NCBI GenBank assembly: GCA_016182495.1
Contig: JACPGK010000020.1
Coordinates: 1 to 62,218 of the forward strand
DNA from: Candidatus Kerfeldbacteria bacterium
GTDB taxonomy: Bacteria > Patescibacteriota > Patescibacteriia > UBA9570
Reading direction: 5' to 3'
DNA length: 62,218 bases
Shown: positions 10,342-27,933 of the stretch, in pieces
Numbering within the stretch: position 1 is the first letter of the stretch
How the letters are laid out: every line of letters begins with the position of its first letter
Notes under the pieces: model-generated
Told to the model about the DNA's origin: nothing
The model's input: only the letters and a program-made list of their open reading frames with translations
Database searches by the model: none
Translations under genes and position numbers: made by a program

Positions 10342-10377
10342 AATATCAATAGTTATTTTAATAAGTGATTTAAAATT

Positions 10378-10746: not shown

Positions 10747-11203
10747 ACGCTCGCTGATTATTGTTAAGCCCGATGCTTTGCAGCGTAATTTATTGGGTGA
10801 GATCATTCATCGTTTTGAACGTAAAGGCCTTAAAATTGTTGGCCTAAAAATGGTGGCGATTGATGATATCAAAATTGTCGAACACTATTCGCATCATGCC
10901 GACAAACCTTTTTTTGCTGATTTAAAACGATTTATGCAGTCGTCGCCGGTGGTGATGTTTGTACTGGAAGGCTTTGAAGCGATTGACGCTATTCGTTTAA
11001 TTGTTGGTCCAACCAAAGGCCGGGCAGCTGATGCCGGCAGTATTCGGGGAGATTTTGCCATGAGCGTGCAGTATAATATTATTCACGCTTCCGATTCGGC
11101 TGAATCAGCTAAAGCTGAAATTGCTCGATTTTTTAGCAACAACGAATTATTTGCCTATAACAAAATTGACGTCGATTATATTTACGGCGCCGACGAACGG
11201 TAA
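10739..11203 (+). CDS. ndk: Nucleoside diphosphate kinase
   Basis: IVKPDA, GSIRGDF, NIIHASD. Confidence 0.97.
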   Translation: MVERSLIIVKPDALQRNLLGEIIHRFERKGLKIVGLKMVAIDDIKIVEHYSHHADKPFFADLKRFMQSSPVVMFVLEGFEAIDAIRLIVGPTKGRAADAGSIRGDFAMSVQYNIIHASDSAESAKAEIARFFSNNELFAYNKIDVDYIYGADER

Positions 11204-11216
11204 AAACGCCAGGCAA

Positions 11217-11245
11217 TTGACAATATCTTAAAGTCATTATATGAT
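11217..11245 (+). promoter_or_regulatory. Sigma70 promoter of the vapBC-like operon
   Basis: TTGACA 11217-11222, 17 bp, TATGAT 11240-11245. Confidence 0.8.
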
Positions 11246-11253
11246 GTATGTGT

Positions 11254-11514
11254 ATGATACATACATCACAAAGAACTCAAGTTTTACTACCGGTTGATCT
11301 TCGTAAGAAGATTGATCGCATGTGCAGTATAACTTCAGAGAGTTTGGGAGAGTTTTTGCGTAAGGCGGCACAGGAAAGGCTGGAAAGAGAGTTGCAAAAA
11401 AAGGCTTCTCTTACTAAACTCGCAGAAGAAGTGATTGGATCTCTGCACCAAGGTTCTTGGAAAGATATGGATGTAGTAGCTTGGCAGCGAGACATGCGAG
11501 CAGATCGAAATTAA
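11254..11514 (+). CDS. Ribbon-helix-helix antitoxin (VapB-like)
   Basis: RTQVLL beta strand followed by helices; directly upstream of a PIN gene; ATG 11254 fits the promoter better than 11248. Confidence 0.75.
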   Translation: MIHTSQRTQVLLPVDLRKKIDRMCSITSESLGEFLRKAAQERLERELQKKASLTKLAEEVIGSLHQGSWKDMDVVAWQRDMRADRN

Positions 11515-11515
11515 T

Positions 11516-11887
11516 ATGTTTTTAATTGACACTAATGTTTTGATCCTTGGCTTGGCAGGGAAAATGCCAGATGCCAAGTTTTTGCAACACGTCATAGAAG
11601 ATGAAACGTTCTGTCTCTCGGTTATTACAGTGGCGGAGTTTTTTACCCGAGCTTCGGGAGACGAGGAGAAAATTCTTGAAAAATTATTTCATGTTTTCCT
11701 ACCACTGGCTATTGATGAAAATGTGGCTAAACAAGCCGGTTGGTATAGAAAAAAATATTTTAAAAAAAGCCAAGCAAAACTGCCTGATTATTTTTTAGCT
11801 GCCCAAGCAAAAGTGTATCGTTGCACACTCGTGACTCATAATACTCGTGATTTTCCTATGAAAGATATTGAAATTGTTTCACCATAA
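11516..11887 (+). CDS. vapC: PIN-domain toxin
   Basis: IDTNVLI, SVITVAE, PDYFLAA, VTHNTRDF. Confidence 0.92.
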   Translation: MFLIDTNVLILGLAGKMPDAKFLQHVIEDETFCLSVITVAEFFTRASGDEEKILEKLFHVFLPLAIDENVAKQAGWYRKKYFKKSQAKLPDYFLAAQAKVYRCTLVTHNTRDFPMKDIEIVSP

Positions 11888-11910
11888 AATTTTTATAGTT
11901 CATCAAAAAT

Positions 11911-11939
11911 TTGACAAAAAAAATACTCTGCTTTATACT
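11911..11939 (+). promoter_or_regulatory. Near-consensus sigma70 promoter of the aromatic amino acid operon
   Basis: TTGACA 11911-11916, 17 bp, TATACT 11934-11939. Confidence 0.9.
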
Positions 11940-11950
11940 TCGGTAACACT

Positions 11951-12034
11951 ATGAATAATTCGCACTCATTTAACTGGTACTGGTTTTATAAGCCGCTCCG
12001 ACAGGTGCTAGGGTTATTATTGTCCACACGCTAA
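11951..12034 (+). CDS. Attenuator leader peptide MNNSHSFNWYWFYKPLRQVLGLLLSTR (Phe/Trp/Tyr control codons)
   Basis: Hand translation; 6 of 7 consecutive codons (11969-11989) are aromatic (2F, 2W, 2Y); lies between the promoter and a terminator, upstream of DAHP synthase. Confidence 0.9.
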   Translation: MNNSHSFNWYWFYKPLRQVLGLLLSTR

Positions 12035-12096
12035 ATCGCATTCATTCCAGTGCAATTACCCAGACCTTTCGGAGCTTTTCCGGAAGGTCTGTTTGT
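11995..12096 (+). terminator. Attenuator: antiterminator and intrinsic terminator
   Basis: Terminator CAGACCTTTCGGA-gcttt-TCCGGAAGGTCTG 12061-12091 plus TTTGT; antiterminator GCTCCGA 11995-12001 pairs with TCGGAGC 12069-12075, extended by AGGT/ACCT and GGGT/ACCC. Confidence 0.85.
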
Positions 12097-12124
12097 ATAG
12101 GCCTGGTATATTAATCACAATTTT

Positions 12125-13141
12125 ATGATCATCGTTATGCAAGAAAACTCACCTAAACAAGATGCCCTCAACGTGGTTGAACATGTACGGCAACTCGGCC
12201 TGCAGCCGGTGTTGTTAGAAGGTACCGAGCGCAATGTTATTGCCGTGATTGGTGATGAGCGCATTTTGGATGTGCCAGTGTTGAACGCCATGACCAGCGT
12301 AGAAAAAGTCATGCCAGTGCTAGCCCCGTTTAAACTAGCCTCGCGCGAACATGCCAAAACCAAAACGGTTATCACCGTTGCCCCTAACGTTAGCATCGGT
12401 GGAACTCGCCTGGCCATTATGGCCGGCAACTGTGCCGTGGAAACCTTGGATGTTTCCTTACGTACCGCTCAAGCTGTACAGCACGCTGGCGCTACCATTC
12501 AACGCGGTGGCGCTTTTAAACCACGCACCTCACCCTATTCATTTCAAGGTTTGGGTGAAGAAGGCCTATTTATTTTACGCGAGGTGAAAAAACAAACTGG
12601 CTTACCGATTATTACCGAAGTGCTCGACCCACGCCAAATTGAATTGGTCGCTGAACACGCTGATATTTTGCAAGTGGGCACACGCAATATGCAGAATTTT
12701 GAATTATTACGTGAGCTGGGTAATTGTGGTAAACCGGTGCTATTAAAACGTGGCATGGCTGCTACCCTTGATGAATTTTTAATGTCAGCTGAATATATTC
12801 TATCGAGTGGTAATCCTAATTTAATTCTGTGTGAGCGCGGTATTCGCACCTATGAAACCGCCACGCGCAATACTCTTGATATTTCTGCCATTCCCGTACT
12901 CAAAGTTAAAACGCACTTACCGGTAATTGTCGATCCATCCCATGCGGCCGGTAAGCGTGCCTATGTGGCTGCGCTCGCTAAAGCCGCCATTGCCGCCGGG
13001 GCGGATGGTTTATTGTTAGATGTGCACCCCGATCCGGCGCGGTCGTTAGTTGATGCCGATCAAGCCTTAAGTTTTGAACAGTTTGATGATTTAATGACAG
13101 ATATCACCTTAATTGCCCAAGCAGTTGATCGAACCATTTAG
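12125..13141 (+). CDS. aroF: DAHP synthase type I-beta with N-terminal regulatory domain
   Basis: [30 protein letters not shown]. Confidence 0.95.
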
Positions 13142-13142
13142 T

Positions 13143-14414
13143 ATGTTTTACCGTAAGTTTGTTCAATCGATTGATTATCAACCGGCCAGCACTGCTTTCC
13201 GCGCCTATAGCGAGGCGGTACCTGGCATTTTGTTTGAATCGGTTGATGTGGCGCCGATTTACGGTCGGAAGAATGTATGGTTTGTTGATCCAATTGTTGC
13301 CATTACCGAACAAGCTGGTGCTGTACAGTTCGAATCATTGCATCCGGCTGGCGATATTGTGCGTCAACAACTCACCCAATCCATTCCCACTTTGCGCAGT
13401 ATCTTTGAACAAATTCACACACCTGATCCATACTTTGGCCTGTATGGTCTGTTCAGTTATGATTACGTTCGTCGATTTGAAACTTTACCGGATTTGCATG
13501 CTCGCGGCACCGTGCCAGATTTTCAGTTGTATATTCCGGATGTTATTTTTGTGTATGATCATTTAAAAGAAACGGCCGAAGTGCATTACTATCAACTCAC
13601 CCAGCTCACCTTAGCGGAACGACTGCAACAATTACCTGAGCAAGCCCAGCAATATATGAAAATTGGGGACGTGTTCGAATTAGTACTATCGCGCCGGTTA
13701 ACTGGATCGTTTGCTGGTTCGGCCCTTGGTTTATACGATGCCTATCGCAACGTTAACCCTTCGCCGTATATGTTTTTTATTAGAACACCGCAGCGAACTA
13801 TAGTAGGAGCCTCACCCGAAATGTTTGTGCGAGTTGAAGATGGTGAAGTGATGACGCGTCCAATCTCTGGCACCGCTGCCCGCAGTATGGATCCCATTGC
13901 CGATTATGAACACATGCTTACCTTATTGAATAGTCCAAAAGAAAAAAGTGAACTTGATATGCTTATTGATTTAGCTCGTAATGATGTTGCTCGAGTATGT
14001 CAACCGGGCATTACAGTATCCGATTATCGTTACGTAGAAAAATATTCAAAAGTAATGCACACCATTGCCCAAGTAACTGGTCGGTTAGATACTAGCCAGT
14101 ATTTGGCCTTCGATGCACTGGTGGCCTGTTTGAATGCTGGCACCTTAACGGGTGCTCCTAAAATTAGAGCAATGGAACTGATTGAGCAGCTTGAACCAGA
14201 GCGGCGGGGTTGTTATGGTGGTTGCGTTGGGTATATCACGTTTAATAATGAATTGAATACTGGCATTACCATTCGGTCGGCCGTGATTGAAGATGCTACC
14301 ATCACTATTCAAGCTGGTGCTACTGTGTTGTATGATTCTAATCCAACCGCCGAGTTTACAGAAACCGAACATAAAGCGGCGGCTTTACTGCAGGCTGCCA
14401 CTGCTACCCTATGA
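13143..14414 (+). CDS. trpE: Anthranilate synthase component I (compact)
   Basis: LFES, NPSPYM, GASPE, PISGT, DLARND, GAPKIRAM; start moved to ATG 13143. Confidence 0.92.
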   Translation: MFYRKFVQSIDYQPASTAFRAYSEAVPGILFESVDVAPIYGRKNVWFVDPIVAITEQAGAVQFESLHPAGDIVRQQLTQSIPTLRSIFEQIHTPDPYFGLYGLFSYDYVRRFETLPDLHARGTVPDFQLYIPDVIFVYDHLKETAEVHYYQLTQLTLAERLQQLPEQAQQYMKIGDVFELVLSRRLTGSFAGSALGLYDAYRNVNPSPYMFFIRTPQRTIVGASPEMFVRVEDGEVMTRPISGTAARSMDPIADYEHMLTLLNSPKEKSELDMLIDLARNDVARVCQPGITVSDYRYVEKYSKVMHTIAQVTGRLDTSQYLAFDALVACLNAGTLTGAPKIRAMELIEQLEPERRGCYGGCVGYITFNNELNTGITIRSAVIEDATITIQAGATVLYDSNPTAEFTETEHKAAALLQAATATL

Positions 14415-14998
14415 AACATGTTGTGATGATTGATAATTTTGATTCTTTCACTTTTAATTTGGTGGATTATTTTAAGCAAGGCGGTGTTCGTATTACTGTG
14501 CAACGCAATACTGCTGCAGTGAGCACGATTAAGCAACTCAAGCCCAACATGATAGTGTATTCTCCTGGGCCGGGTAACCCCAAGCAAGCTGGCAATTTGT
14601 TAAAATATATTGAATTTTTTAGCCAGCAGCTGGTGGTGCCACAATTTGGAGTGTGTTTAGGCTTACAGGCTATGATTGAGGCATTTGGTGGCAGTTTACG
14701 AGTACTGCCGCACCCCATCCACGGTAAAGCCTCATACATTCATCATCAGGGTGAGGGTATATTTCAATCGTTACCCAACCCGTTATTGGCCGGACGTTAC
14801 CATTCCTTAGCGGCTGAACATGTGCCGGCTGATTTTGACGTTACCGCCACGACCCAAGATGATCGTAATGGCGAAGTGGTCATGGCTATTCAACATCGAC
14901 ACCTGCCACTGGTTGGAGTGCAGTTTCATCCTGAATCAGTCTTAACTATGCACCATCAGGCCGGCCTGCATTTAATTCGTAATGTCATTGCTCAATGA
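14411..14998 (+). CDS. trpG: Anthranilate synthase component II
   Basis: IDNFDSFT, SPGPG, GVCLG, QFHPES. Confidence 0.95.
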   Translation: MKHVVMIDNFDSFTFNLVDYFKQGGVRITVQRNTAAVSTIKQLKPNMIVYSPGPGNPKQAGNLLKYIEFFSQQLVVPQFGVCLGLQAMIEAFGGSLRVLPHPIHGKASYIHHQGEGIFQSLPNPLLAGRYHSLAAEHVPADFDVTATTQDDRNGEVVMAIQHRHLPLVGVQFHPESVLTMHHQAGLHLIRNVIAQ

Positions 14999-15010
14999 TG
15001 AACAATTTGT

Positions 15011-15997
15011 ATGAATAACATTATACAACAATTGCAACGTGGTGAAGATTTAACCATTGCTCAAGCCGAGCAGGTGATGGATCAATTAATGGCTGGTCAA
15101 ATTGAGGCCGTACCCATGGCTGCCATTTTAATGGGCCTAGCCACCAAAGGTGAAACCACCGATGAATTGGTCGGCATGTTACACAGTGTGCATAAACATA
15201 TGATCGCCCTAGATTTAGGCCAACCATTATTAGATACCTGTGGCACTGGTGGGGATCATGCCAACACCATTAATCTATCTACCATGGCAGCCTTGGTATG
15301 TGCGGCTCTGGGCGTATCAGTAGCGAAGCACGGCAATCGAGCGGTTAGTTCTCAATCGGGCAGCGCCGATGTACTGGCTGCTTTAGGTGTACCAATTGAT
15401 TTAACTGGCCAAGCTGCCCAGCAGTATTTTAAACAGCATCACTTTGTGTTTTTGTTTGCGCCGTTATATCACCCAGCTTTTAAACAGCTGGCTAGCGTTC
15501 GTAAACAATTGGGTATTCGTACCATTATGAACCTGCTTGGACCATTAGCTAATCCAGCTCGGGCCAGTCACCGCTTGTTAGGAGTAGCTGATTTGGGGCT
15601 AGCTGATATGCTGGGTCAAACCTTAATGGAATTGGGCGTTCAGCATGCCGTGGTAGTGCATAGTGCCGATAATTTAGATGAAGTAAGCATTGCTGCTCCT
15701 ACTACGGTATTTGATTTTACGCAACAGGGTAGCAATCGTTTTCGCATTGAACCCGATACGCCATTCAGGGTAGATGATATGGCCGGTGGCACGGCTAAAC
15801 ACAATGCCGCCGTCATTCGACAGTTAGCCGAAGGTAAAGCTAGCCGAGCAGTTATTACCGCGGTGGCAATGAACGCTGGGTTAGCCTTATATGCGGCCGA
15901 TCAGGCCACTAGTTACGAGGCAGGTAAAACCATGGCTGAACAGTGCTTACGCTCGCATACCTTTGGAGCGTATCTACAAAAACTGACACCACAATGA
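15011..15997 (+). CDS. trpD: Anthranilate phosphoribosyltransferase
   Basis: DTCGTGGD, KHGNR, GPLANP. Confidence 0.97.
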   Translation: MNNIIQQLQRGEDLTIAQAEQVMDQLMAGQIEAVPMAAILMGLATKGETTDELVGMLHSVHKHMIALDLGQPLLDTCGTGGDHANTINLSTMAALVCAALGVSVAKHGNRAVSSQSGSADVLAALGVPIDLTGQAAQQYFKQHHFVFLFAPLYHPAFKQLASVRKQLGIRTIMNLLGPLANPARASHRLLGVADLGLADMLGQTLMELGVQHAVVVHSADNLDEVSIAAPTTVFDFTQQGSNRFRIEPDTPFRVDDMAGGTAKHNAAVIRQLAEGKASRAVITAVAMNAGLALYAADQATSYEAGKTMAEQCLRSHTFGAYLQKLTPQ

Positions 15998-16728
15998 CCA
16001 TCCTTGATACTATTTACCAGTATAAACAGCACGAGCTGGACCAACAATTACAACCGCAGCGCGATTTTGCCGCAGCCTTACGCAGTGCTACCGGCCTAGC
16101 CGTGATTGCCGAATTTAAACAGGCCTCGCCCAGTGCCGGCATGATTCGTACCGGAGCAGTGCTGGCCAATATTGTCACCCAATATTATCAAGGTGGAGCC
16201 CGAGCCTTATCAATTTTAACTGACCAACATTTTTTTCAAGGCCAATTAGATTATATTAATCAAGCCAAACAAGCCGTACCGTTACCGGTGTTGCGCAAAG
16301 ATTTTATTTTTCATCCTTTTCAAGTATACGAAAGTAAATTGGCCGGCGCCGACGCTATTTTATTAATCGCTGCCAAGTTGACAGGGCCACAATTACAACA
16401 GCTGGTAGCGTTAGCCCATAGCCTGGGTTTACAAACCTTGGTTGAAATTCATACCACCACTGAAGTTGATCGAGCCATCGCCTGCCAACCAACCATGTTT
16501 GGAGTAAATGCCCGTAATTTACACACCATGATCATTGATTTGCATACCATCGCCCGGATTGTGCCATTACTGCCGAGCAGTAGTTTGATTGTGTTCGAAT
16601 CAGGTATTACCAGCCGAGCCGATGTAGCGTATGTTCGGCAAGCTGGTGTCAAGGCTATTTTGATTGGCACAACGTTAATGCAGGCCGAGCATCCACAATT
16701 GGCTTTAGAGCAATTGATTGAAGCATAA
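15994..16728 (+). CDS. trpC: Indole-3-glycerol phosphate synthase
   Basis: IAEFKQASPSAG, LRKDF, ESGI; start at the ATGA overlap 15994. Confidence 0.96.
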   Translation: MTILDTIYQYKQHELDQQLQPQRDFAAALRSATGLAVIAEFKQASPSAGMIRTGAVLANIVTQYYQGGARALSILTDQHFFQGQLDYINQAKQAVPLPVLRKDFIFHPFQVYESKLAGADAILLIAAKLTGPQLQQLVALAHSLGLQTLVEIHTTTEVDRAIACQPTMFGVNARNLHTMIIDLHTIARIVPLLPSSSLIVFESGITSRADVAYVRQAGVKAILIGTTLMQAEHPQLALEQLIEA

Positions 16729-16732
16729 TGCT

Positions 16733-17371
16733 ATGTTGTTATATCCTCTAAAAATTTGTGGAATTACTAACGAAGCCGATGCTTTTTCGGCCGCTCAAGC
16801 TGGTGCCAGTTACTTGGGCTATATTTTAAATGCTCCAACCAGTCCACGCTATATTAGGGTTAATACGGCGGCTGCTATTATTAAGCGGGTGCGTCAAATT
16901 TATCCAGCAGTGAAACACGTTGGAGTATTTGTTGATGCTTCTTCGGCTGTGATGGATCAGGTTATCAGTCAATTACAGCTTGATGTTGTACAATTACACG
17001 GCCAGGAATCATTACAAGATATTGAACAACTGATTGCGCCAGTCATTTGGAAAACTGTTATTGTATCTACTCCGGACGATCTTCAGCAGCTTCATCTTTT
17101 TCAGCGTTCTTTAGCACGTTCAGCTTGCTCGGCGATTTTGTTAGATAGCGGCCAAGGGTCTGGCCAAACTATTGCCTCGACATTATTGGATCAGGTGACT
17201 GATTTTTCTACTATTATTTTAGCCGGCGGCATTACGCCTGATAATGTGACTGAACTGATCCAGCGTTATCATCCAGCTATTATCGATGTGAATAGTGGGG
17301 TAGAAGCTGTTCCTGGCAAAAAGGATATTTTTAAAATAAAACAATTAATCCAACGATTAAATCGTTTATGA
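16733..17371 (+). CDS. trpF: Phosphoribosylanthranilate isomerase
   Basis: KICGIT, VQLHG, LAGGI, DVNSGVE. Confidence 0.95.
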   Translation: MLLYPLKICGITNEADAFSAAQAGASYLGYILNAPTSPRYIRVNTAAAIIKRVRQIYPAVKHVGVFVDASSAVMDQVISQLQLDVVQLHGQESLQDIEQLIAPVIWKTVIVSTPDDLQQLHLFQRSLARSACSAILLDSGQGSGQTIASTLLDQVTDFSTIILAGGITPDNVTELIQRYHPAIIDVNSGVEAVPGKKDIFKIKQLIQRLNRL

Positions 17372-18597
17372 AGAGCAGTATGAAAAAACTTTTTTTTAAA
17401 ACTCAATATGAGCCAGATGAGCACGGTCATTTTGGTGAATTTGGTGGCCAGTATGTACCAGAATTATTAATTCCAGCTCTAGAAGAATTAACTCAAGCCT
17501 ATGAACAGGCCAAGGCTGATCCAAGTTTTGTGGCGACTGTTCATGAGGTGTTTAAAAACTATGTTGGCCGACCATCACCGTTGTATTTTGCTGAACGCTT
17601 AACCAAGCAGTTAGGTGGCGCCAAAATTTTTTTAAAGAATGAAGGGCTCAATCATACCGGTGCGCATAAAATTAATCACTGCGTTGGGCAAGCCTTATTA
17701 GCCCAGCGGTTGGGTAAAACTCGTTTGATTGCCGAAACGGGGGCTGGTCAACATGGTGTCGCCACGGCCACGGTGGCCGCCAAGTTTGGTTTGCACTGTA
17801 CCGTGCATATGGGAGCAGTTGATGTACAGCGACAAGCGCCCAATGTATTTTGGATGCAACAGTTAGGCGCCGAAGTACGAGTGGTGCACGACGGTAGCCA
17901 AACTTTAAAAGATGCTGTCACCAGTGCCTTACAAGATTGGATGACCGACCCGATTGGTAGTTACTATTTACTTGGTTCAGCCCTGGGACCACATCCGTAT
18001 CCGGTAATGGTGCGGGATTTTCAAAGTATTATCGGTATCGAAGTGGCTGAACAATTTCAAGCCTATGAAGGCCAGGGATCCGTACCAGATTATTTGGTGG
18101 CGTGTGTTGGTGGTGGCAGCAATGCCATTGGTTTATTCAACGCTTTTTTGGATGATAAACAGGTGAAATTAATTGGCGTAGAAGCTGGTGGCCGTAACCC
18201 AAACCAAGTTGGCGAACATGCCACTCGGCTAGGGCGGCAACCCCAGGTAGGTGTGATTGAAGGCTATAAATCATTTTTTTTGCAAGATGACGATGGTAAT
18301 TTGCAACCAACCCACAGTGTGTCAGCTGGGTTAGATTATCCCGGCATTGGGCCAGAGCATGCCTATTTATATCAACAAGGTCGAGCCCAGTATGTAGCCG
18401 TGACTGATGTTCAAGCTGTGCAAGCCTTTCGGGCATTGGCCAACACCGAAGGTATTGTACCGGCTTTGGAATCGGCTCATGCGGTGGCCTATGCTATACA
18501 GTTAGCCCCCACCTTGCCACCGAAAAAAACCATCGTGGTGAATATTTCCGGGCGAGGGGATAAGGATTATTTTATTTTGCGGGAATTGATTCATTAA
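17368..18597 (+). CDS. trpB: Tryptophan synthase beta chain
   Basis: HTGAHKIN, ETGAGQHG, SAGLDYPG, SGRGDKD. Confidence 0.98.
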   Translation: MKSSMKKLFFKTQYEPDEHGHFGEFGGQYVPELLIPALEELTQAYEQAKADPSFVATVHEVFKNYVGRPSPLYFAERLTKQLGGAKIFLKNEGLNHTGAHKINHCVGQALLAQRLGKTRLIAETGAGQHGVATATVAAKFGLHCTVHMGAVDVQRQAPNVFWMQQLGAEVRVVHDGSQTLKDAVTSALQDWMTDPIGSYYLLGSALGPHPYPVMVRDFQSIIGIEVAEQFQAYEGQGSVPDYLVACVGGGSNAIGLFNAFLDDKQVKLIGVEAGGRNPNQVGEHATRLGRQPQVGVIEGYKSFFLQDDDGNLQPTHSVSAGLDYPGIGPEHAYLYQQGRAQYVAVTDVQAVQAFRALANTEGIVPALESAHAVAYAIQLAPTLPPKKTIVVNISGRGDKDYFILRELIH

Positions 18598-18600
18598 ATT

Positions 18601-19374
18601 ATGTCCCGCACCATTTCCGAACAACTTACCATCATCAAACAACAGCACCGCCTTGGTGTAATGACGCACGTGGTGATGGGCTACCCATCGCTGCATGAAA
18701 CCAAACAACGCGTACTAGCGATGGCGGCGGCTGGCGTTGATAGTATTGAATTACAAATTCCATTCTCGGATCCGTTAGCCGATGGCCCAGCCATTACTAA
18801 GGCTAATCAGCAAGCTTTAGCCGCCGGTGTTACTGTACAGCAGTGTTTACAGCTGGCTGAACAACTCACCAGAGCAGTTGATATCCCTTTACAATGTATT
18901 GGGTACTATAATACGATCCATCATTTTGGCGTACAACAATTTGTGCAGGCTAGCCAAGCAGCTGGTATTCAAGGATTCACCATTCCTGATATGCCACTCA
19001 CTGAAGAGCCCTATGAACATTTTTATGCTTTGGCCGCCCAAGCTAACCTGCCAGTAATTCAACTGATTTCACCAGCTACTCCTATTGAACGTTTACGCTT
19101 GATCAATCAGCACGCCCAGGCCATGGTGTACTGTGTCAGTCGCTTTGGTGTCACCGGCGCTCACACCACCTTACCAGATCATCTCATCACCTACCTACGC
19201 ACGGTTCGGCAATATGTTACACTACCATTAGCGGTTGGCTTTGGTATTTCAACGCCCAAACATATTCGCGCTCTGCATGGGCTAGCCGATGTGGCCGTGA
19301 TTGGCAGTGCGTTATTGAATGTGTCACTCGAAAATTTAACACAACAATTAACTAACTTATGCGCCGAACGGTAA
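18601..19374 (+). CDS. trpA: Tryptophan synthase alpha chain
   Basis: PFSDPLADGP, GVTG, VGFGIS. Confidence 0.97.
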   Translation: MSRTISEQLTIIKQQHRLGVMTHVVMGYPSLHETKQRVLAMAAAGVDSIELQIPFSDPLADGPAITKANQQALAAGVTVQQCLQLAEQLTRAVDIPLQCIGYYNTIHHFGVQQFVQASQAAGIQGFTIPDMPLTEEPYEHFYALAAQANLPVIQLISPATPIERLRLINQHAQAMVYCVSRFGVTGAHTTLPDHLITYLRTVRQYVTLPLAVGFGISTPKHIRALHGLADVAVIGSALLNVSLENLTQQLTNLCAER

Positions 19375-20375
19375 CAACCAACCAGCAAAGTTATCCAGTA
19401 ATTATTCAAACCGGCAGCAGCGAACGGTTCAATTTTTCCACACCAGCGGTGGTCGTGTGTGATCGTCAGGTGCAACGGTCGTATCCTAAACTATTGCCGC
19501 AATATCGCCGTGTTATATTGCCAGATGGCGAGGCCAACAAACGTTTACGTACCATTGAGTGGTTGTGCTTGCGGCTACTCAAATTAGGCTGTGATCGTTC
19601 AACTAGTCTGATCGGTATTGGTGGCGGGGTGGTAGGTGATATGGTTGGTTTTACTGCCGCTGTGTTTATGCGCGGGGTGCCGTATTATCACGTACCAACG
19701 ACCTTGTTAGCCATGGTTGATTCTAGTATTGGCGGCAAAACAGGTGTTGACCTTAGCCTTGGTAAAAATTTGATTGGTACTACCTATCAACCAATGGCCG
19801 TAATTAGTGACCCACGGTTTTTATTAACCTTATCGGCTGAACAATTTAGTAATGGCCTAGCCGAGGTGATTAAGCATGCTGTGCTGGAACCAAGCCTGCT
19901 TAGCTGGATCGAACAACACCGTAGTCAAATTCAGCGGCGACACCTGCCAACCTTACAACAGCTGATTAGTCGTAATGTTGAAATTAAAGCCGCTATTGTG
20001 GCGGCCGATGAGCACGAAACTTTACAACGGATGCTATTGAATTTGGGCCATACCTTTGGTCATGCCTTCGAAAAATTAAGTCGCTATACCATACCGCATG
20101 GCCAAGCGGTGGCGATTGGTTTAATGTATGCCATGAGCTACACTGCTATGCCGCAGCATCAGCGGGTGGCCAAATTATTACAGCAGTTCGATTTGCCAAT
20201 TCGTTTGCCCCGGCCGTATTCTCCCCGGGCCATTGTACAGGCGATGCACCATGATAAAAAACATCGCGGTAACTATATTACTCTGGTTGTGCCATTACAG
20301 CTTGGTCATGTGCGCATTGATCAAACGGTCACACCAGCTCACTTGCTACGCTTTTTGCAGCACTACCATGGCTAA
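19359..20375 (+). CDS. aroB: 3-dehydroquinate synthase
   Basis: GGGVVGD, PTTLLAMVDSSIGGKT, LNLGHTFGHAFE, HG. Confidence 0.96.
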   Translation: MRRTVTTNQQSYPVIIQTGSSERFNFSTPAVVVCDRQVQRSYPKLLPQYRRVILPDGEANKRLRTIEWLCLRLLKLGCDRSTSLIGIGGGVVGDMVGFTAAVFMRGVPYYHVPTTLLAMVDSSIGGKTGVDLSLGKNLIGTTYQPMAVISDPRFLLTLSAEQFSNGLAEVIKHAVLEPSLLSWIEQHRSQIQRRHLPTLQQLISRNVEIKAAIVAADEHETLQRMLLNLGHTFGHAFEKLSRYTIPHGQAVAIGLMYAMSYTAMPQHQRVAKLLQQFDLPIRLPRPYSPRAIVQAMHHDKKHRGNYITLVVPLQLGHVRIDQTVTPAHLLRFLQHYHG

Positions 20376-21951
20376 GCCAATTAAATACACTGTTACGGTA
20401 CCTGGTTCAAAATCATTTATGAATCGGGCTTTAATTTGTGCCGCCCTAGCCAAGGGTCAATCAACGTTATTGAATCCCGTGTATTGTGATGATACCAATT
20501 ACATGATTAAAGCCTTGCGGGCTTTAGGCGTGCACATTAATACCACGGCTCGGCAGGTGACAATTCGCGGCCTGAACGGAAAATTCAAACTACCCAAACC
20601 GGGGCGTGGTACACGGCGAATTTATATAGGCAATGCCGGCACGGTGATACGTTTTTTAACACCACTGCTGCCAGCCGGTACAAGGTTGGTTGGTAATCAG
20701 CGTATGCAGCAACGCCCGTTGCAGGAATTAATTGAGGCAGTGGCACAGATCAAACACGACAATCACATAACTATTACTGGTACAGTCAGCAGTCAATTTA
20801 TTTCGGCGCTTTTATTAGTTGCACCCACACTGCCACACGGCTTAACGATTATGGTGAAAGGTAAATTGGTATCAGCTCCGTATGTTCAAATGACTTTAGC
20901 CGTGATGCATCAATTTGGCATTAAAGTTACAAGGCGCAATGATCAATTTACAATTTATAAACAAGACTACCAAGCAAACAACTATACCATTGAAGGCGAT
21001 GCCAGCAGCGCCACCTACTGGTGGGCACTGGCCGCCATCACCGGTAGTCATATCACTGTGCCGAATATTCCATTGGATACTCTACAACCTGACGCAAAAT
21101 TTAAACAGTTATTAGAAAAAATGGGTTGCACAGTGAAGGCTAATACGGTGATTGGTCCATGGAATAAAGCACTCAAACCGATGACAGTGAATATGTCCGA
21201 TTATCCTGATGCGGTTTTAGCTGCGGCCGTAGTGATGACACAAGCCAGCGGTAGAAGCACCATTACCGGGATTGGTCATTTAACTCATAAAGAAACTGAT
21301 CGATTGACATTGTTAAAAAAAAATTTACGGAAATTAAAATCAACACACCCAATTGTCATTGATACTGGTGCTGATCATCGGTTCGCGATGGCGTTCAGTA
21401 TTTTAGGTTTAGCTATTGGTAAGATCACTGTGGATAATAAACAGTGCGTCAAAAAAAGTTATCCAACATTTTGGTCTGATTTTAAAAAGGTTGAACAACA
21501 AGTCAAACGTCAAACCATCGTGCTCACCGGCCTGCGCGGCGTGGGTAAAACCACCTATGGTAAAATATTAGCCAAGCAATTCAAGATGAAATTTGTTGAT
21601 ACGGATACGATGATGGGTAAAAATATTTCCACATTGGTTCAGCAACACGGTTGGAAACAGTTTCGCAATCAGGAACATGTTGTGGTCAAACAAATGTGTA
21701 AGAAAAAAAATGCGATTATCGCAACGGGCGGTGGCACATTAATGTATCCACGTAATTTCACAGTATTAAAAGAGCACTATATTATCTTATTAACGGCACC
21801 ACTGGCTGTGATAAGACAGCGCTTATCAAAACAATCACATCGTCCAGCTTTGCTGAAACGTCAGACTGTTGTGACTGAATTAAATCAGGTTTGGCAACAA
21901 CGCAAAAATAAATACTATCAAATAGCCGACAATATCTATGATAGCCGTTAG
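20368..21951 (+). CDS. aroA: Fused EPSP synthase (shortened) and shikimate kinase (AroA-AroK)
   Basis: GSKS..NR, GNAGT, SSQFISA, KETDRL, DHRFAM, KSYP, then P-loop GLRGVGKT and ATGGG; start moved to ATG 20368. Confidence 0.9.
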   Translation: MAKPIKYTVTVPGSKSFMNRALICAALAKGQSTLLNPVYCDDTNYMIKALRALGVHINTTARQVTIRGLNGKFKLPKPGRGTRRIYIGNAGTVIRFLTPLLPAGTRLVGNQRMQQRPLQELIEAVAQIKHDNHITITGTVSSQFISALLLVAPTLPHGLTIMVKGKLVSAPYVQMTLAVMHQFGIKVTRRNDQFTIYKQDYQANNYTIEGDASSATYWWALAAITGSHITVPNIPLDTLQPDAKFKQLLEKMGCTVKANTVIGPWNKALKPMTVNMSDYPDAVLAAAVVMTQASGRSTITGIGHLTHKETDRLTLLKKNLRKLKSTHPIVIDTGADHRFAMAFSILGLAIGKITVDNKQCVKKSYPTFWSDFKKVEQQVKRQTIVLTGLRGVGKTTYGKILAKQFKMKFVDTDTMMGKNISTLVQQHGWKQFRNQEHVVVKQMCKKKNAIIATGGGTLMYPRNFTVLKEHYIILLTAPLAVIRQRLSKQSHRPALLKRQTVVTELNQVWQQRKNKYYQIADNIYDSR

Positions 21952-23137
21952 TCTAACGCGCCCCCAAGATTATCAACAAGCCTTACGTAGTGGGGCAGAT
22001 TATGTAGAGTTGCGTACGGATTATTTTACCGATCAACAACTCAAACACTTTGTGGAACATAGCACGTTGCCCGTGATCTACACCATCAAACGTCCCACAG
22101 CTTATTTACCCAAGGTTGCCTATGTAGACATAGATGATCAATCCAAACAACATCTTTCAGGAAAAGTTATTCGGTCTTTTCATGATTATAAACGCACTCC
22201 CCATTTTTCAACATTAAATCAGCTGGTGCAGAGCATCTTAAAACAAAAATCAATTCCAAAAATTGCTACGCACGTTCAGACAGTAGCTGATCTTTATACG
22301 TTAGCCAGACTGCAAAAGAAATATGGTAAAAAGATTATTGTGGTTGGCATGGGCGAATTAGGCATGATGACCAGAGTGTATAACAAAAGTTTATTGACGT
22401 ATGCTAGCGTTTCTAGAGCTGCCACTACAGCCACCGGACAGTTAACGATGAAGGAAATGAAGACCACTCAACTATTTGGTTTAGTTGGTGATGCTATCCA
22501 ACATAGTTTAAGTCCAAAGCTGCATCAGCAGTTTTATCGGCAAAAGCATTTACCGTATGATTATCAATTATGGGAAACAGTTGATTTGGCAAAGATGATG
22601 TTTGTGTTTGATTTTTTTGAACTACCAGGTGCGTCGGTAACCAAGCCATTCAAACGTCAGGTGATGCAGTATTGTGATCAGATTGATCGGCATGCCAAAA
22701 AAATTGGGGCAGTCAATACGGTAGTGCGCCGGGGCAACACGTTGCTTGGTTATAATACCGATTGGCTTGGTGTACAAAACAGTATTGGTCGTTACCTAAC
22801 AGGTAAACGAGTGTTGATACTAGGTAGAGGTGGCACAGCCAAAGCCATAGCTTATGCCGCCAAACAAGCTGGATCAAAAAAAATAACCATGCTGGGTCAT
22901 CAACAATTACCAACTAGCACAACTGATTATGATGTTGTCGTGAATGCTACTCCAGTAGGTGATCAATTATTAGTGCCAGCCAATAGTTTAAAAGGTAAAG
23001 TGGTGATGGATTGTATTTATGGTCAGCAGACTGAATTATTGAAACAGGCCAGGTATAATGGTGCCAAGGTTGTGCTCGATGGCCTGCCTATGTTACGGTA
23101 TCAAGCAACAGAACAGTTTAGATTAATGAAAGTTTGA
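21938..23137 (+). CDS. aroE: Fused type I dehydroquinase and shikimate dehydrogenase (AroD-AroE)
   Basis: VELRTD, SFHDY, GMGELG, then HSLSP, VTKPFK, GAVNT, NTD, NATP. Confidence 0.9.
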   Translation: MIAVSLTRPQDYQQALRSGADYVELRTDYFTDQQLKHFVEHSTLPVIYTIKRPTAYLPKVAYVDIDDQSKQHLSGKVIRSFHDYKRTPHFSTLNQLVQSILKQKSIPKIATHVQTVADLYTLARLQKKYGKKIIVVGMGELGMMTRVYNKSLLTYASVSRAATTATGQLTMKEMKTTQLFGLVGDAIQHSLSPKLHQQFYRQKHLPYDYQLWETVDLAKMMFVFDFFELPGASVTKPFKRQVMQYCDQIDRHAKKIGAVNTVVRRGNTLLGYNTDWLGVQNSIGRYLTGKRVLILGRGGTAKAIAYAAKQAGSKKITMLGHQQLPTSTTDYDVVVNATPVGDQLLVPANSLKGKVVMDCIYGQQTELLKQARYNGAKVVLDGLPMLRYQATEQFRLMKV

Positions 23138-23140
23138 ATT

Positions 23141-24115
23141 ATGCCCGGTAATACCTTTGGAACAATTTTTCGCTTAACTACTTGGGGTGAATCTCATGGT
23201 GTTGCTATTGGCGGAGTAATAGATGGCTGCCCGGCTGACATTGCTTTATGTGCAGCTGATATTCAAAAAGATCTCGATCGCCGTAAGCCTGGTCAAAGCA
23301 GTATTACCAGTGCTCGCAAGGAACCTGATACAGTGCAAATTTTGTCTGGCGTGTTTCAGGGCAAAACTACCGGTACGCCAATTAGTCTGATTATGTACAA
23401 TCAAGATCAACGCTCCAAAGATTACGAAAAGCTAGTATACAAATATCGTCCTGGTCATGCTGATGAAGTATACGATTTGAAATATGGCTGGCGTGATTAT
23501 CGTGGCGGTGGGCGAGCCAGTGCCCGTGAAACGGCTATCCGTGTAGCCGCTGGCGCCATTGCCAAAAAAATCTTGCCCCGAAAAACCGCAGTGATTGCCT
23601 ACACCAAACAAATTCAAGATTTAGTTGTCACCACACCAAAATTGAATCAGATTGAACAAAACACCGTGCGTGCAGCTGATAACGTCATTGCCAAAAAAAT
23701 GGTGGCACTGATTAAAACGGCTATGCGCCAACAGGATTCGTTAGGCGGTGTGATTGAAATTGTAATCAAACATTGCCCGATAGGATTAGGCGAACCGGTA
23801 TTTGATAAATTGAAAGCCGATTTGGCCAAAGCTTTATTAAGTATCAATGCTGTAGTCGGATTTGAATATGGCGCTGGCTTTGGCGTGGCGCAGTTGTACG
23901 GTTCAGAACATAATAAAATTGAAGTGGGGATGTATGGCGGTATTTCGAATGGAAAAACGATAACTATGCGTGTGGCGGTGAAACCAACTTCATCCATAAA
24001 AATAGGCGGCCGGCACGATCCATGTTTATTGCCGCGGGCTGTGCCAATTTGTGAAGCCATGGTTAATGTGGTGTTAGCGGATCATTATTTACGGAATGCC
24101 ACTGCTACCGTATGA
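23141..24115 (+). CDS. aroC: Chorismate synthase
   Basis: [28 protein letters not shown]. Confidence 0.97.
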
Positions 24116-24669
24116 TCATAGCCGTAGCCGGTAATCAGGGCAGTTTTTCACATCAAGCTGGGCAATTGTATGCCACTGGCCAGCAATTGGCTGATGTTCA
24201 GTTTGTGTATGCTATTGATAGCGCTGGAGTGTTTGCCGCTGTACAAACTGGTGCGGCCGAATTAGGCATTATGCCCTTGTATAATCCCACGGGCGGAATA
24301 GTGCAAATGACACTGCAAGCTATGGGTGAACATCGTTTCAAAACTGTGGCTTCGTTCACTATGCCGGTGCAACACTGTTTGCTGTGCTTACCCAATGTGC
24401 GGCCCGATGAACTAAAAACTATTGTGTCGCACGAACAAGCCTTGGCCCAATGTCGGCAGTATGTCGATGTGAATTGGCCAGAGTGTCAGTTGCAACCCTA
24501 TAGCGATACTGCTCAAGCCGCTGCTGATTTAGCTGCTGGTAAATTTGCGCTGGAAACAGCTGTGTTGGCTCCAAAAATGTGCGTGGAATTATATGGTTTG
24601 CGCTTGATTGCCGAAGGGGTGCAAGATGATAAAAGTAATGGAACGGTGTTTATAGTGATTGGCTCATAA
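24112..24669 (+). CDS. pheA: Prephenate dehydratase, catalytic domain only (no ACT domain)
   Basis: [22 protein letters not shown]; ends just after the TRF-equivalent (here TVF). Confidence 0.8.
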
Positions 24670-24672
24670 TGT

Positions 24673-25629
24673 ATGAACATAGCAATAATAGGCGCTGGTC
24701 GTTTCGGCACAGTATTACAAAAACATTTATCAACGGATAATGATGTGGTGATGGTAGGAGTAGAGTATCATTCTGCCCTTACCTCGGAATTATCGGAATG
24801 CAACCTAATCATTTTTGCGGTACCCAATCGTGCCTTGGCTGAAGCGGTTCAACAATGGAAACCGTTGATATCTGATACAGCCATTATTATGGATGTTGGT
24901 TCAGTCAAACTGTTGCCCTGCCAAATTTTATTAGAAGCTTTTCCCGAGCATAATGTCATCGGTACGCATCCATTATTCGGACCCGACAGTGCAGCTGAAT
25001 CATGGGACGGTCAAAAAATGGTGTGGTGTAAATTACACTGTGCCGACGATATCTATAACAATGTCCAAACATTATTTACCAGCCGTGGTGTTACTACTAT
25101 TGAAACTACACCGGAACAGCACGATCACATGATGGCGCAAACTCAAGCTCTGGTTCATTTTATTGGCCGGGCACTAACCGGTTTACAACCTCAAACTATT
25201 GCCACACCCGATTACGCTAATTTACTGCGCATGATGGAAAAAGTGACCAATGATACCTGGGAGTTATTTTATGATATGCAAAATTTAAATCCGTATACCA
25301 AACCGGTGCGGCAAGAATTTATAAAAAATATTGAAAAGTTGGAACAGGAGATTAAGAAAGAAAGCCAGGGTGAAAAATCGATTAATGAAATCCGTTCCCA
25401 AATAGATACTATCGATGAACAGATTGTGGCCCTGGTGGGGGAGCGGTTCAAATTGGCGCAACAGATTGGGCAACGTAAAAAAGATATTCAAGCTGACGTT
25501 CAAGACCCAAAACGCGAAACTGAATTATATTTGCGCATGCACCAGTTATCGCAACAATACCAGGTGCCGTTAGAAGTGGTGACACATCTCTATGATTATT
25601 TAATGGATCAAGCTCGCCGGATGCAATAA
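24673..25629 (+). CDS. tyrA: Prephenate dehydrogenase fused to C-terminal AroQ chorismate mutase
   Basis: GAGRFG, DVGSVK, HPLFGP, HDHMMA; C-terminal IRSQIDTID...R...IG..K...DPKRE. Confidence 0.9.
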   Translation: MNIAIIGAGRFGTVLQKHLSTDNDVVMVGVEYHSALTSELSECNLIIFAVPNRALAEAVQQWKPLISDTAIIMDVGSVKLLPCQILLEAFPEHNVIGTHPLFGPDSAAESWDGQKMVWCKLHCADDIYNNVQTLFTSRGVTTIETTPEQHDHMMAQTQALVHFIGRALTGLQPQTIATPDYANLLRMMEKVTNDTWELFYDMQNLNPYTKPVRQEFIKNIEKLEQEIKKESQGEKSINEIRSQIDTIDEQIVALVGERFKLAQQIGQRKKDIQADVQDPKRETELYLRMHQLSQQYQVPLEVVTHLYDYLMDQARRMQ

Positions 25630-25635
25630 TTGCTC

Positions 25636-25664
25636 TTGACATGAAAATACTGTATTAGTACACT
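25636..25664 (+). promoter_or_regulatory. Sigma70 promoter
   Basis: TTGACA 25636-25641, 17 bp, TACACT 25659-25664. Confidence 0.85.
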
Positions 25665-25675
25665 ACTATTAACTT

Positions 25676-25783
25676 ATGCATCAACTAGCCGTTTGTGTAA
25701 CCTTTAACTGGAACCTCCGCAAGGTAGGTACTATTAATATTACAGTTAGCCAGCGGGTTAAAACGGACTATGCTCATGCTTAA
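25676..25783 (+). CDS. Candidate leader peptide MHQLAVCVTFNWNLRKVGTINITVSQRVKTDYAHA
   Basis: ATG begins 12 nt after the -10 end, the same spacing as the aromatic leader; its 3' part covers the 5' arm of an antiterminator. Confidence 0.5.
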   Translation: MHQLAVCVTFNWNLRKVGTINITVSQRVKTDYAHA

Positions 25784-25843
25784 GTAAACAGAGTAGCTAG
25801 TAGAGAATAACCGTTTTAACCCGCTGACCAGCGGGATTTTTTT
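25751..25843 (+). terminator. Mutually exclusive antiterminator and intrinsic terminator
   Basis: Perfect 16-bp stem CAGCGGGTTAAAACGG 25751-25766 / CCGTTTTAACCCGCTG 25811-25826 competes with CCCGCT-gacc-AGCGGG 25820-25835 plus T7. Confidence 0.8.
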
Positions 25844-25880
25844 GAAGTTCAATCCGCCCTTTGTCAATTAGGAGGAAGTA

Positions 25881-26435
25881 TAGGCAACGTAGTATAAACC
25901 GGGAGTGAGATAAGGTCACTATTATTATATTGGCTTTATTCCACTCCCGGTTGGCAGACAAAGACTGTCCTGCCGGGAAAGCCGGGTACACACTTCACCG
26001 TGCGTGCCCACCGGAGAACGACCCCATGACCCCTGAGAAGTACCTGCAGCGCAAGACCATCGCTCGAACCAACAAGCTCCTCCGCCTGGCCTGGCTGGAG
26101 CTCAACGCTCCGCTCAAGTTCCAGTTCAAGGTCCAGGGCTGGAAGTCCGAGATCATGAAGCTGGCGGAGCTGGTCGGTTCGGGTATCACGTTCGAAGATG
26201 TTCGAGTGTTCGCTGTGCAGGTGGGAGTGAACGTGGAGGAGGTGCTCTCGCACCCCTTCCCGTGGGCCCCCAAGCCCACCCCCCGCCGGCCGCCGCACGA
26301 CTGCTACGACTATTCGAACATCTGATATTTAAATAGCGCATTCAGCGCGGAAGGTTGTAGGGGTATTAGGCCCTGCATGTGGAATCATCCACAAGGCAAC
26401 CCTGTTTAACGACCTCCCCCGGACTACGTTGCCTA
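25881..26435 (+). repeat. Long-range inverted repeat enclosing an orphan ORF
   Basis: TAGGCAACGTAGT 25881-25893 / ACTACGTTGCCTA 26423-26435, extendable by CCGGG/CCCGG across a 5-nt bulge. Confidence 0.8.
26026..26325 (+). CDS. GC-rich 99-aa hypothetical protein
   Basis: SD GGAG 26013-26016, ATG 26026, strong G/C third-position bias unlike its neighbours. Confidence 0.7.
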   Translation: MTPEKYLQRKTIARTNKLLRLAWLELNAPLKFQFKVQGWKSEIMKLAELVGSGITFEDVRVFAVQVGVNVEEVLSHPFPWAPKPTPRRPPHDCYDYSNI

Positions 26436-26543
26436 CCTTCTTGTGTGAAGAACTTAACCCTAGAGGTGACGAGGTTCTGCATACAAACCAGGTAAACATT
26501 CCGGCTTCACAACTCCTTTAATTCCCAGTACACTGCTACCAGT

Positions 26544-27923: not shown

Positions 27924-27933
27924 CAACCGGGAA

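Follow-up and report, generated by a model that had tools for sequence, protein, structure and literature searches.

A fourteen-gene aromatic amino-acid block behind a predicted leader-peptide attenuator in a family of Patescibacteria

How would a bacterium of the candidate phyla radiation (CPR, or Patescibacteria), a group that the available part of a recent source describes as nearly without amino-acid synthesis and with these pathways almost absent (PMC13707452, 2026), hold and control the genes for all three aromatic amino acids? The question is raised by a contig of a Candidatus Kerfeldbacteria genome (JACPGK010000020.1, assembly GCA_016182495.1), whose full 62,218 nucleotides (nt) were analyzed here and are called the window. 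On its plus strand, positions 12125-25629 hold a row of 14 open reading frames (ORFs) with 17 enzyme domains and no gaps, which together are predicted to convert phosphoenolpyruvate (PEP) and erythrose-4-phosphate (E4P) into chorismate, tryptophan, phenylpyruvate and 4-hydroxyphenylpyruvate. Our analysis suggests that this block is an operon under a ribosome-mediated attenuator whose leader ORF would report on the charging of the cell's own Trp, Phe and Tyr tRNAs, and that the arrangement is an old trait of the family. What is new here is the predicted attenuator, together with its variation in step with gene content; the mechanisms belong to the textbooks, and none is new in kind. A literature search of open-access scope found no paper on the shikimate or trp pathway in CPR bacteria and none on leader-peptide attenuation in them.

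A predicted attenuator upstream of aroF

The first gene of the block, aroF, is preceded by a 237-nt gap that holds, between 11911 and 12096, a promoter, a leader ORF and the predicted helices of an antiterminator and a terminator:

11911..11939, plus strand: sigma-70-like promoter, TTGACA and TATACT with a 17-nt spacer; it scores 11/12 and is the best promoter-like site in 11400-26600
11951..12034, plus strand: leader ORF, 27 codons and a stop, MNNSHSFNWYWFYKPLRQVLGLLLSTR
11995..12006, plus strand: 5' arm of the predicted antiterminator, GCTCCGACAGGT, within leader codons 15-19 and pairing with 12064-12075
12061..12096, plus strand: predicted intrinsic terminator, a hairpin of 13-14 base pairs (12061-12091) followed by TTTGT, with a 5' arm common to the antiterminator

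Leader codons 7-13 (11969-11989) read F-N-W-Y-W-F-Y, six of the seven being aromatic, and a run of that density (at least six aromatic residues in a seven-residue window) occurs in only 3 of the 11,013 short ATG ORFs of the genome. From the end of the -10 box to the leader ATG there are 11 nt in the window and 8-13 nt in the family genomes with a leader, and the leader mRNA would be nearly leaderless. The two hairpins are mutually exclusive and conserved. The antiterminator fold (11995-12080) has a computed energy of -27.4 kcal/mol (z -4.2, 0/200 shuffles as good), and 92.6% of its cells are paired in nine family sequences, compared with 21-59% for slid partners. The terminator, at -22.3 kcal/mol (z -6.4, again 0/200 shuffles as good) and with 14 pairs the best terminator-like site in the scan of 11400-26600, is paired in 92.2% of cells in nine family sequences, with four pairs changed on both sides, and the slid controls for both helices gave 21-62%. 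The minimum-energy folds of the nine family leaders alternate between the antiterminator and the terminator.

This layout of promoter and leader recurs in family genomes. Leader ORFs of like design are present in 8 of the 10 other members whose upstream region was examined (G003, G010, G011, G006, G009, G002, G005 and G007), and thus in 9/11 with the genome of the window (G000) included; in G012 the upstream region is cut by a contig end, with the arm and terminator visible, and upstream in G004 nothing was seen. Since the order of F, W and Y varies among these genomes while the aromatic make-up stays constant, selection appears to act on the codons and not on the RNA sequence.

Taken together, these features are likely to constitute a classical ribosome-mediated attenuator, a reading in which we place good confidence. 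Transcription would begin at the 11911-11939 promoter, and the near-leaderless 27-codon ORF would be translated. Were Trp-, Phe- or Tyr-tRNA scarce, the ribosome would stall in the FNWYWFY run, leaving 11995-12006 free to pair with 12064-12075, and the antiterminator so formed would block the 12061-12091 terminator; were all three amino acids plentiful, the ribosome would cover the arm, the terminator would form and transcription would end before aroF. Both the stalling and the direction of the switch are proposed here on the model of known attenuators. Because the predicted attenuator is coupled to the cell's own tRNA charging, the operon would serve the cell's own supply when scavenging fails, and such a switch suggests cells that now scavenge and now supply themselves, rather than ones wholly dependent on a host.

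The design resembles that of trpL-trpEDCBA and pheL-pheA of Escherichia coli in its short ORF with a run of cognate codons, its antiterminator and terminator with a shared arm, and its T-run. It differs in that the CPR leader would sense three amino acids, is nearly leaderless, has its stop codon 25 nt past the arm and has no match in Rfam, where the E. coli attenuator families are Trp_leader and Phe_leader. The nearest known switch, alongside the trpL and pheL leaders, is that of Corynebacterium glutamicum, in which an aroR leader (Phe-Tyr-Phe) stands ahead of the aroF operon and acts by ribosome stalling (Neshat et al. 2014, as given in the available part of PMC11802643). The likeness to aroR, mixed aromatic codons before an operon that begins with 3-deoxy-D-arabino-heptulosonate 7-phosphate (DAHP) synthase, is one of design and not of sequence comparison; the CPR leader adds Trp codons and covers the trp genes, whereas C. 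glutamicum has a separate trpL (available part of PMC11802643).

Several details of the element count against this explanation and limit how firmly it can be put. In E. coli trpL, the ribosome at the leader stop codon covers the antiterminator arm; here the stop codon lies 25 nt past the arm, and a ribosome paused at it would leave the arm uncovered. The state of plenty would therefore have to rest on a kinetic argument, in which the terminator is transcribed while the ribosome still occupies the arm. Just 5-11 nt separate the last two aromatic codons from the arm, part of which would be covered by a ribosome stalled at them; the leader Trp codons are 14-20 nt before the arm, and the distance in trpL is similar. 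In this genome the T-run after the hairpin is short (TTTGT), with longer runs in relatives. Just one antiterminator pair is changed on both sides, and the covariation has limited weight because the nine sequences in the alignment are related. Finally, the start of transcription, termination at 12096 and co-transcription of the block are predictions from the DNA.

Gene content and leader codons

The genes that this leader would control are encoded as follows, with coordinates from the likeliest starts:

12125..13141, plus strand: aroF, DAHP synthase type I-beta; PF00793, PF18152; NF006421 at 469.5 bits (cut-off 335)
13143..14414, plus strand: trpE, anthranilate synthase component I; PF00425, PF04715; below NCBIfam cut-offs; the ORF opens at TTG 13113, with ATG 13143 the likelier start
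14411..14998, plus strand: trpG, glutamine amidotransferase component II; PF00117; TIGR00566 at 181 bits (cut-off 121)
15011..15997, plus strand: trpD, anthranilate phosphoribosyltransferase; TIGR01245 at 343.8 bits (cut-off 199)
15994..16728, plus strand: trpC, indole-3-glycerol-phosphate synthase; PF00218; NF001377 at 271.6 bits (cut-off 260); the ORF opens at GTG 15943, and ATG 15994 gives a 4-nt overlap with trpD
16733..17371, plus strand: trpF, phosphoribosylanthranilate isomerase; PF00697; below NCBIfam cut-offs; the ORF opens at TTG 16718
17368..18597, plus strand: trpB, tryptophan synthase beta; TIGR00263 at 576.6 bits (cut-off 392)
18601..19374, plus strand: trpA, tryptophan synthase alpha; TIGR00262 at 204 bits (cut-off 102)
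19359..20375, plus strand: aroB, 3-dehydroquinate synthase; TIGR01357 at 331 bits (cut-off 305)
20368..21951, plus strand: aroA-aroK fusion, 5-enolpyruvylshikimate-3-phosphate synthase and shikimate kinase; PF00275, PF01202; the ORF opens at TTG 20233, the likely start is ATG 20368, and relatives align from query residue 44-55
21938..23137, plus strand: aroD-aroE fusion, type I dehydroquinase and shikimate dehydrogenase; PF01487, PF08501
23141..24115, plus strand: aroC, chorismate synthase; NF003793 at 385 bits (cut-off 321)
24112..24669, plus strand: pheA, prephenate dehydratase (PDT), PDT domain only; PF00800
24673..25629, plus strand: tyrA-CM, prephenate dehydrogenase (PDH) with a C-terminal type II chorismate mutase; PF02153, PF20463, PF01817

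Every one of the 14 ORFs matches its expected Pfam family above the curated cut-off, and the genes stand in the order that an earlier note, made from the letters alone, had given; its report of tight spacing without frameshifts is borne out too, with every frame uninterrupted and neighbors that overlap by 4-16 nt or are spaced by 1-12 nt. The stricter NCBIfam cut-offs are passed by nine of the 14 proteins. TrpE, TrpF, AroD-AroE, PheA and TyrA-CM (5/14) fall under them, as does the shikimate kinase half of AroA-AroK, and the trpE of the window is without 78 nt that read-derived contigs hold; these shortfalls tell against a fully working pathway, and the activity of each step is accordingly put forward as a prediction from homology.

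Within 12125-25629 the best plus-strand promoter-like site scores 10/12, and plus-strand terminators have at most 8 pairs. The trp genes are thus nested among aro genes on one strand with no strong internal promoter or terminator, the arrangement of a supraoperon, and the 14 genes are probably co-transcribed as a single-transcript operon. No aminotransferase gene is part of the block, and Phe and Tyr would be completed by aminotransferases encoded elsewhere in the genome.

The nearest known operon is the aro-trp supraoperon of Bacillus subtilis, aroF-aroB-aroH-trpEDCFBA-hisC-tyrA-aroE, in which, as here, trp genes are nested in common-pathway and Tyr/Phe genes in one co-directional block. The CPR block differs in holding all seven common-pathway steps, all Trp steps, chorismate mutase, PDT and PDH, with three fusions, and in having no aminotransferase gene. 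Its predicted control is by a leader peptide, whereas that of Bacillus is by TRAP, for which no gene search was made here.

The composition of the leaders follows the content of the operons behind them. Each of the eight family leaders ahead of operons containing trpEGDCFBA carries one Trp codon or two within its run. The operon of G007 consists of aroF-aroB-aroAK-aroDE-aroC without trp genes, and its leader, MRSQPNTYYFFYFTRYYRKLC, has Tyr and Phe and no Trp. Beyond the family, G059 (with the run FYFYFYF), G341 and G284 (families f46 and f30) lack trp genes in their aro operons and Trp codons in their leaders, and G018, from the same order and with an operon that begins aroF-trpB-aroB, has the run FFWFF. 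Two genomes depart from the pattern: G333 has one Trp codon in the run though its trp genes are divergent, and G087 has one Trp codon, outside the run. The genomes compared are kin and offer few independent contrasts, and G327 was left out of the comparison, its trpE tblastn match beginning only at query residue 108.

The leucine genes appear to be under the same device. A Leu-rich leader, MFNQTFQQLLSLLTLRTPVGSEAL (32404-32478), lies before leuA behind a weak promoter and is followed by a hairpin and T-run (whole element 32368-32535); Leu-rich leaders with terminators also precede leuA in G009 and G006. LeuA is full-length in only 3 of 13 family genomes, with a fourth match (G002) weak and partial.

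These comparisons bear on a different account of the element upstream of aroF, in which its terminator answers to a protein or a small molecule, or the element is just the gene of a small protein, with aromatic codons that are incidental. The stop codon far past the antiterminator arm, unlike that of E. coli trpL, would suit such an account, as would the Rfam result: nothing in the window reaches the gathering score, and in 11880-12130, at E up to 1, there is only a chance-level match to a small nucleolar RNA. The same searches, however, found no T-box or other riboswitch family in the window or the leader. The aromatic run is kept in most of the family with its residues shuffled, and like runs occur in unrelated CPR families (G018, G059, G333, G341, G284). 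In an unbiased scan of 20 phylum loci, 22 of 3,114 short ORFs had at least five aromatic residues in seven, and among those 22 were the leaders of G059, G333 and G341, which lie directly upstream of their operons. With Trp codons missing where trp genes are missing, and Leu codons in a leu operon of the same design, we regard incidental codons as very unlikely and keep to the ribosome-mediated attenuator.

Whether the device extends further is a wider conjecture, to which we give a little under an even chance: that leader-peptide attenuation is a general control of biosynthesis in the amino-acid-making minority of CPR, with leaders that evolve with gene loss, their Trp codons vanishing when trp genes are deleted. 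If true, the leaders would be a readable record of the end products that each streamlined lineage still makes, and near-leaderless leader mRNAs would imply a tight coupling of transcription and translation that starts at the 5' end. In practice, the amino acids that an uncultured CPR lineage can still make could be predicted from its leader peptides, which would serve as a simple sequence marker.

A further ORF of this kind lies in another CPR family, where a short reading frame on the minus strand at about 5550 of L063 (G245:C1), MKNTEVKKYFWFYFFTDTNSRQF, with a run of 7/7 aromatic residues, is found just downstream of aroC; it may be the leader of the next gene.

Organism, assembly and descent

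The window is the whole of contig C37 in a genome of 1,305,262 bases on 38 contigs, with a completeness of 96% and a contamination of 0.18%. Ribosomal-protein genes (str, S10, spc) lie on the same contig as the operon, and there the S5 gene ends at 57090 and the L15 gene starts at 57106 with nothing between. A search for L30 (PF00327) gave 0 matches in this 96%-complete genome and was positive in 13 of 14 control genomes; a missing gene for ribosomal protein L30 is a hallmark of CPR. Genome sizes among the listed relatives from the family, order, class and phylum are 0.6-2.1 Mb. The nearest named homologues of AroA-AroK and AroD-AroE belong to Candidatus Kerfeldbacteria bacterium, at 64-68% identity; other named ones are labelled 'Patescibacteria group bacterium', and fused homologues farther off are labelled Peregrinibacteria, Gracilibacteria and Daviesbacteria. 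The S5-L15 adjacency, the lack of L30, the 1.3-Mb genome, the small genomes of relatives and the labels of the homologues thus agree with the CPR origin that had been proposed from the sequence alone, and support the placement of the organism in a Patescibacteria family, the closest named relatives of which carry the label Candidatus Kerfeldbacteria.

Could the operon have come from another organism through binning or assembly? The genome is metagenome-assembled and lies on 38 contigs, and one set of read-derived contigs (X1) breaks between 25.2 and 27 kb and has a minor variant at 25986-26332. We nevertheless give a chimera almost no credence. The operon shares one 62-kb contig with the L30-less ribosomal-protein operon, the same operon is found in family genomes, and contamination is low. 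The stretch is present in six groundwater-metagenome runs from two studies, none of the runs listed for 10001-20000 being an RNA run; of the words sampled from it, 32-48% recur in the second study. In X4, a sample that carries no flag as a possible source, contigs cover 9001-12874 and 20088-27888 with 0 differences, and a single X1 contig reaches from 9001 to 25179. Both operon borders, where the earlier note had asked that chimerism be checked, are therefore bridged by independent contigs, and misassembly there is excluded.

Within the family the trait is widespread. AroF was found in 12 of 13 genomes (11 of the 12 other members), two of the matches being cut by contig ends, and five or more genera have the operon. 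Three genomes of three other genera, G005 (= L009), G002 and G006, share the 14-gene order exactly, with protein identities of 46-80%. TrpB is encoded in 8 of the 12 other family members and in 2/5 genomes of family f5, and in none of 12 genomes of f4, of two further genomes of the order (f2, f3) or of nine other families of the class. In the phylum as a whole, chorismate synthase (AroC) is present in 32 of 401 genomes (31 of the 400 others), about 8%, and TrpB is above the cut-off in 26/401. The family, and about 8% of the sampled phylum, thus retains the most expensive amino-acid pathway. The lineage had been called unusually prototrophic, which is right in kind; it is not unique, given AroF in 11/12 other family members and AroC in 31/400 phylum genomes.

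Two members speak against a trait uniformly kept: G001, at 99% completeness, is without AroF and TrpB, so that the trait is not fixed in the family, and in G006 trpB is frameshifted. At the latter locus (L096, G006:C6, 5645-6700) the frameshift follows about residue 185, about 60 residues are missing and the Trp codons of the leader are kept; the gene has either decayed or been misassembled.

A recent horizontal transfer of a portable block from a donor outside CPR would fit the rarity of the pathway in the phylum, and several other results could be read that way. The TrpB of CPR as a whole is polyphyletic, with several separate clades mixed with other phyla, and the nearest non-CPR TrpA and TrpB outside the family come from metagenome-assembled genomes (MAGs) labelled Deltaproteobacteria and Polyangiaceae (TrpA identity 47% and 44%). 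Just upstream, between ndk and the aro leader of the window, stands a PIN toxin-antitoxin pair. The borders and composition of the block argue the other way: its guanine-plus-cytosine (GC) content of 0.42-0.47 lies within the 0.39-0.51 found elsewhere on the contig, the operon borders are free of integrases, tRNAs and repeats (and the window of any tRNA gene), and ndk is directly upstream of the leader in G005, G006, G009 and G011. The relationships of the proteins argue likewise. The best 98 database matches of AroA-AroK are mostly fused and all the named ones among them are CPR, unfused AroA appearing from about 40% identity; in the TrpB tree the family falls in a clade with 99% support by the Shimodaira-Hasegawa-like approximate likelihood-ratio test (SH-aLRT) that joins 21 CPR rows with a single MAG labelled Deltaproteobacteria. 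That tree came from a quick search with SH-aLRT support only and a midpoint root, and its non-CPR rows were chosen by TrpA similarity to the query and form a biased outgroup; it omitted L009, L010, L115 and L097 as duplicates, L128 for a stop, and L013, L024-L026 and L033, which had no TrpB match of at least 330 residues.

From the evidence of borders, GC, distribution and TrpB clade it follows that any transfer would be old, of a direction that the TrpB tree does not fix, and we consider a recent one unlikely. The idea of a portable acquired operon as a recent event, raised before this analysis, is therefore set aside on the contig-like GC, the ndk gene upstream in four relatives and the CPR identity of the closest AroA-AroK and TrpB relatives. 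With its family-wide distribution and contig-like GC, the operon is best read from these sequences as an old family trait, mostly vertically kept and lost in places. A Myxococcota donor for the trp genes, suggested by the nearest TrpA (L011, L012), is not supported, the TrpB of L011 lying inside the otherwise CPR clade.

Twenty AroC neighborhoods across the phylum were inspected and include several aro clusters. Fused aroA-aroK occurs in G327, G341, G284, G432 and G333, the first four of which also have a fused aroD-aroE, and G327 has an aro-trp block in another order. At L097 (G018:C18, 12104-14421), which reads aroF-trpB-aroB, trpB is the sole trp gene of the locus. We considered it as a remnant of the family trp block and rejected this, since its TrpB groups with G203 and G361, apart from that of the family; a role in indole salvage is possible. 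In family f35, AroC is matched in two or three pieces within stop-free frames of 753 and 566 residues (G100:C11:21944-24160 and G075:C9:4982-6616), which suggests large in-frame insertions, perhaps inteins.

Enzymes, precursor supply and flanking features

At 13636/13637, within trpE, Logan contigs hold 78 additional in-frame letters (X1 at depth 37.6, X4 at depth 7.5), and in an alignment with four relatives the TrpE of the window is 26-27 residues short at exactly this place. Because the insert in the read-derived contigs coincides with the residue gap, the trpE of the window probably either lost these letters in frame during assembly or represents a minority variant.

The dehydroquinase part of AroD-AroE is also short, at about 176 residues some 70-100 below the usual length, and its Pfam match is confined to the C-terminal half of the profile. 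Its His82 and Lys108 align with the catalytic His and Lys of 2egz and 2gpt, and His82, Lys108 and Arg146 of the dehydroquinase part, like Lys239 and Asp275 of the dehydrogenase part, are invariant in 38 sequences. We take His82 to be the catalytic histidine, Lys108 the Schiff-base lysine, and Lys239 and Asp275 the catalytic residues of the dehydrogenase. An AlphaFold model of the fusion (predicted local distance difference test, pLDDT, 96.3) has eight strands in the first 176 residues, and in its secondary structure the barrel is without helices after strands 3 and 4. The top Foldseek match of the model is the dehydroquinase-shikimate dehydrogenase (DHQ-SDH) of Arabidopsis (6bmb/2gpt, E 1e-30), which it resembles in domain order, fold and aligned catalytic His and Lys. 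It differs in length, 399 residues against about 500, and in the modelled eight-stranded barrel that lacks the two helices. A search for a type II dehydroquinase across the genome found none. On the strength of the model, we read AroD as a compact yet intact enzyme.

Regulatory parts are trimmed as well. PheA has 185 residues, of which PF00800 spans 3-184, with no second domain and no ACT regulatory domain, and the NCBIfam PheA profiles (283-284 positions) are matched just to about position 180-183. AroF retains an N-terminal ferredoxin-like FXD domain, presumably the allosteric domain known from the DAHP synthase of Thermotoga. LeuA (32554-33708) has 384 residues that cover positions 5-383 of a 516-position profile, the C-terminal regulatory part being missing. 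Together with the fusions, the loss of trp genes or of the whole operon in some members, and the allosteric domains stripped from PheA and LeuA, these shortened enzymes indicate, at the level of sequence, a family undergoing streamlining. For biochemistry they offer minimal enzymes: a type I dehydroquinase barrel of 176 residues, and PheA and LeuA without regulatory domains.

The missing feedback domains could favor overproduction, and CPR are widely regarded as episymbionts (available part of PMC13707452), so that an operon working mainly to feed aromatic amino acids to a host or partner deserves consideration. Against this stand the predicted coupling of expression to the cell's own charged tRNA pools and the FXD domain that AroF keeps, whose role would be allosteric; domain annotation of the operon and its flanks, moreover, found no exporter gene inside or adjoining it, and nothing in the data points to a host. 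Provisioning as the main function seems quite improbable to us. Sensing of the cell's own tRNAs fits self-supply, a reading that is compatible with leakage to a partner.

Precursors would be at hand. The genome encodes a split transketolase adjoining rpe, rpiB and a class II aldolase (fba), and also enolase, phosphoribosyl pyrophosphate synthase, serine hydroxymethyltransferase (SHMT) and glutamine synthetase. For E4P, PEP and serine, whose supply the earlier note had wished to see traced, there is thus a plausible source gene for each. Aminotransferases number three like aspartate aminotransferase and one like HisC, besides the IlvE of the window, which the earlier note had placed at 36675 and which is a branched-chain aminotransferase (36483/36675-37607). 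After leuABCD-ilvE, at 37616-39984, lie tdh (threonine dehydrogenase-like, below the NCBIfam cut-off) and kbl (glycine C-acetyltransferase, 554 bits); they give a Thr-to-Gly route, which in combination with the SHMT of contig C23 could provide serine for TrpB.

Directly after the operon stands a further unit:

25636..25842, plus strand: promoter at 25636-25664 (10/12), a 35-codon ORF or small RNA, a long hairpin (z -4.0) and a terminator

Its competing terminator at 25820-25835, with a T7 run, is the first strong plus-strand terminator after tyrA-CM. A unit from promoter to terminator occupies the same place in G005, G002 and G006, with dissimilar ORFs, and 25600-26560 has no Rfam match. A second aromatic leader was considered for this unit and rejected, its ORF having a single F, W and Y and the ORFs of relatives being dissimilar; the unit may or may not be part of the operon. 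Farther on, 25930-26332 looks like a strain-variable cassette. It is a high-GC ORF with no Pfam match, the bin 26001-28000 has a GC of 0.51 in a lower-GC contig, and X1 contigs, broken repeatedly between 25.2 and 27 kb, include a minor variant (depth 5.9 against about 37) in which 25986-26332 is swapped for 238 other letters. On the other side of the operon, toxin-antitoxin genes lie at 1597-3272 and 11248-11887: AbiEii, a nucleotidyltransferase/HepT pair, and a small ORF with a PIN-domain gene.

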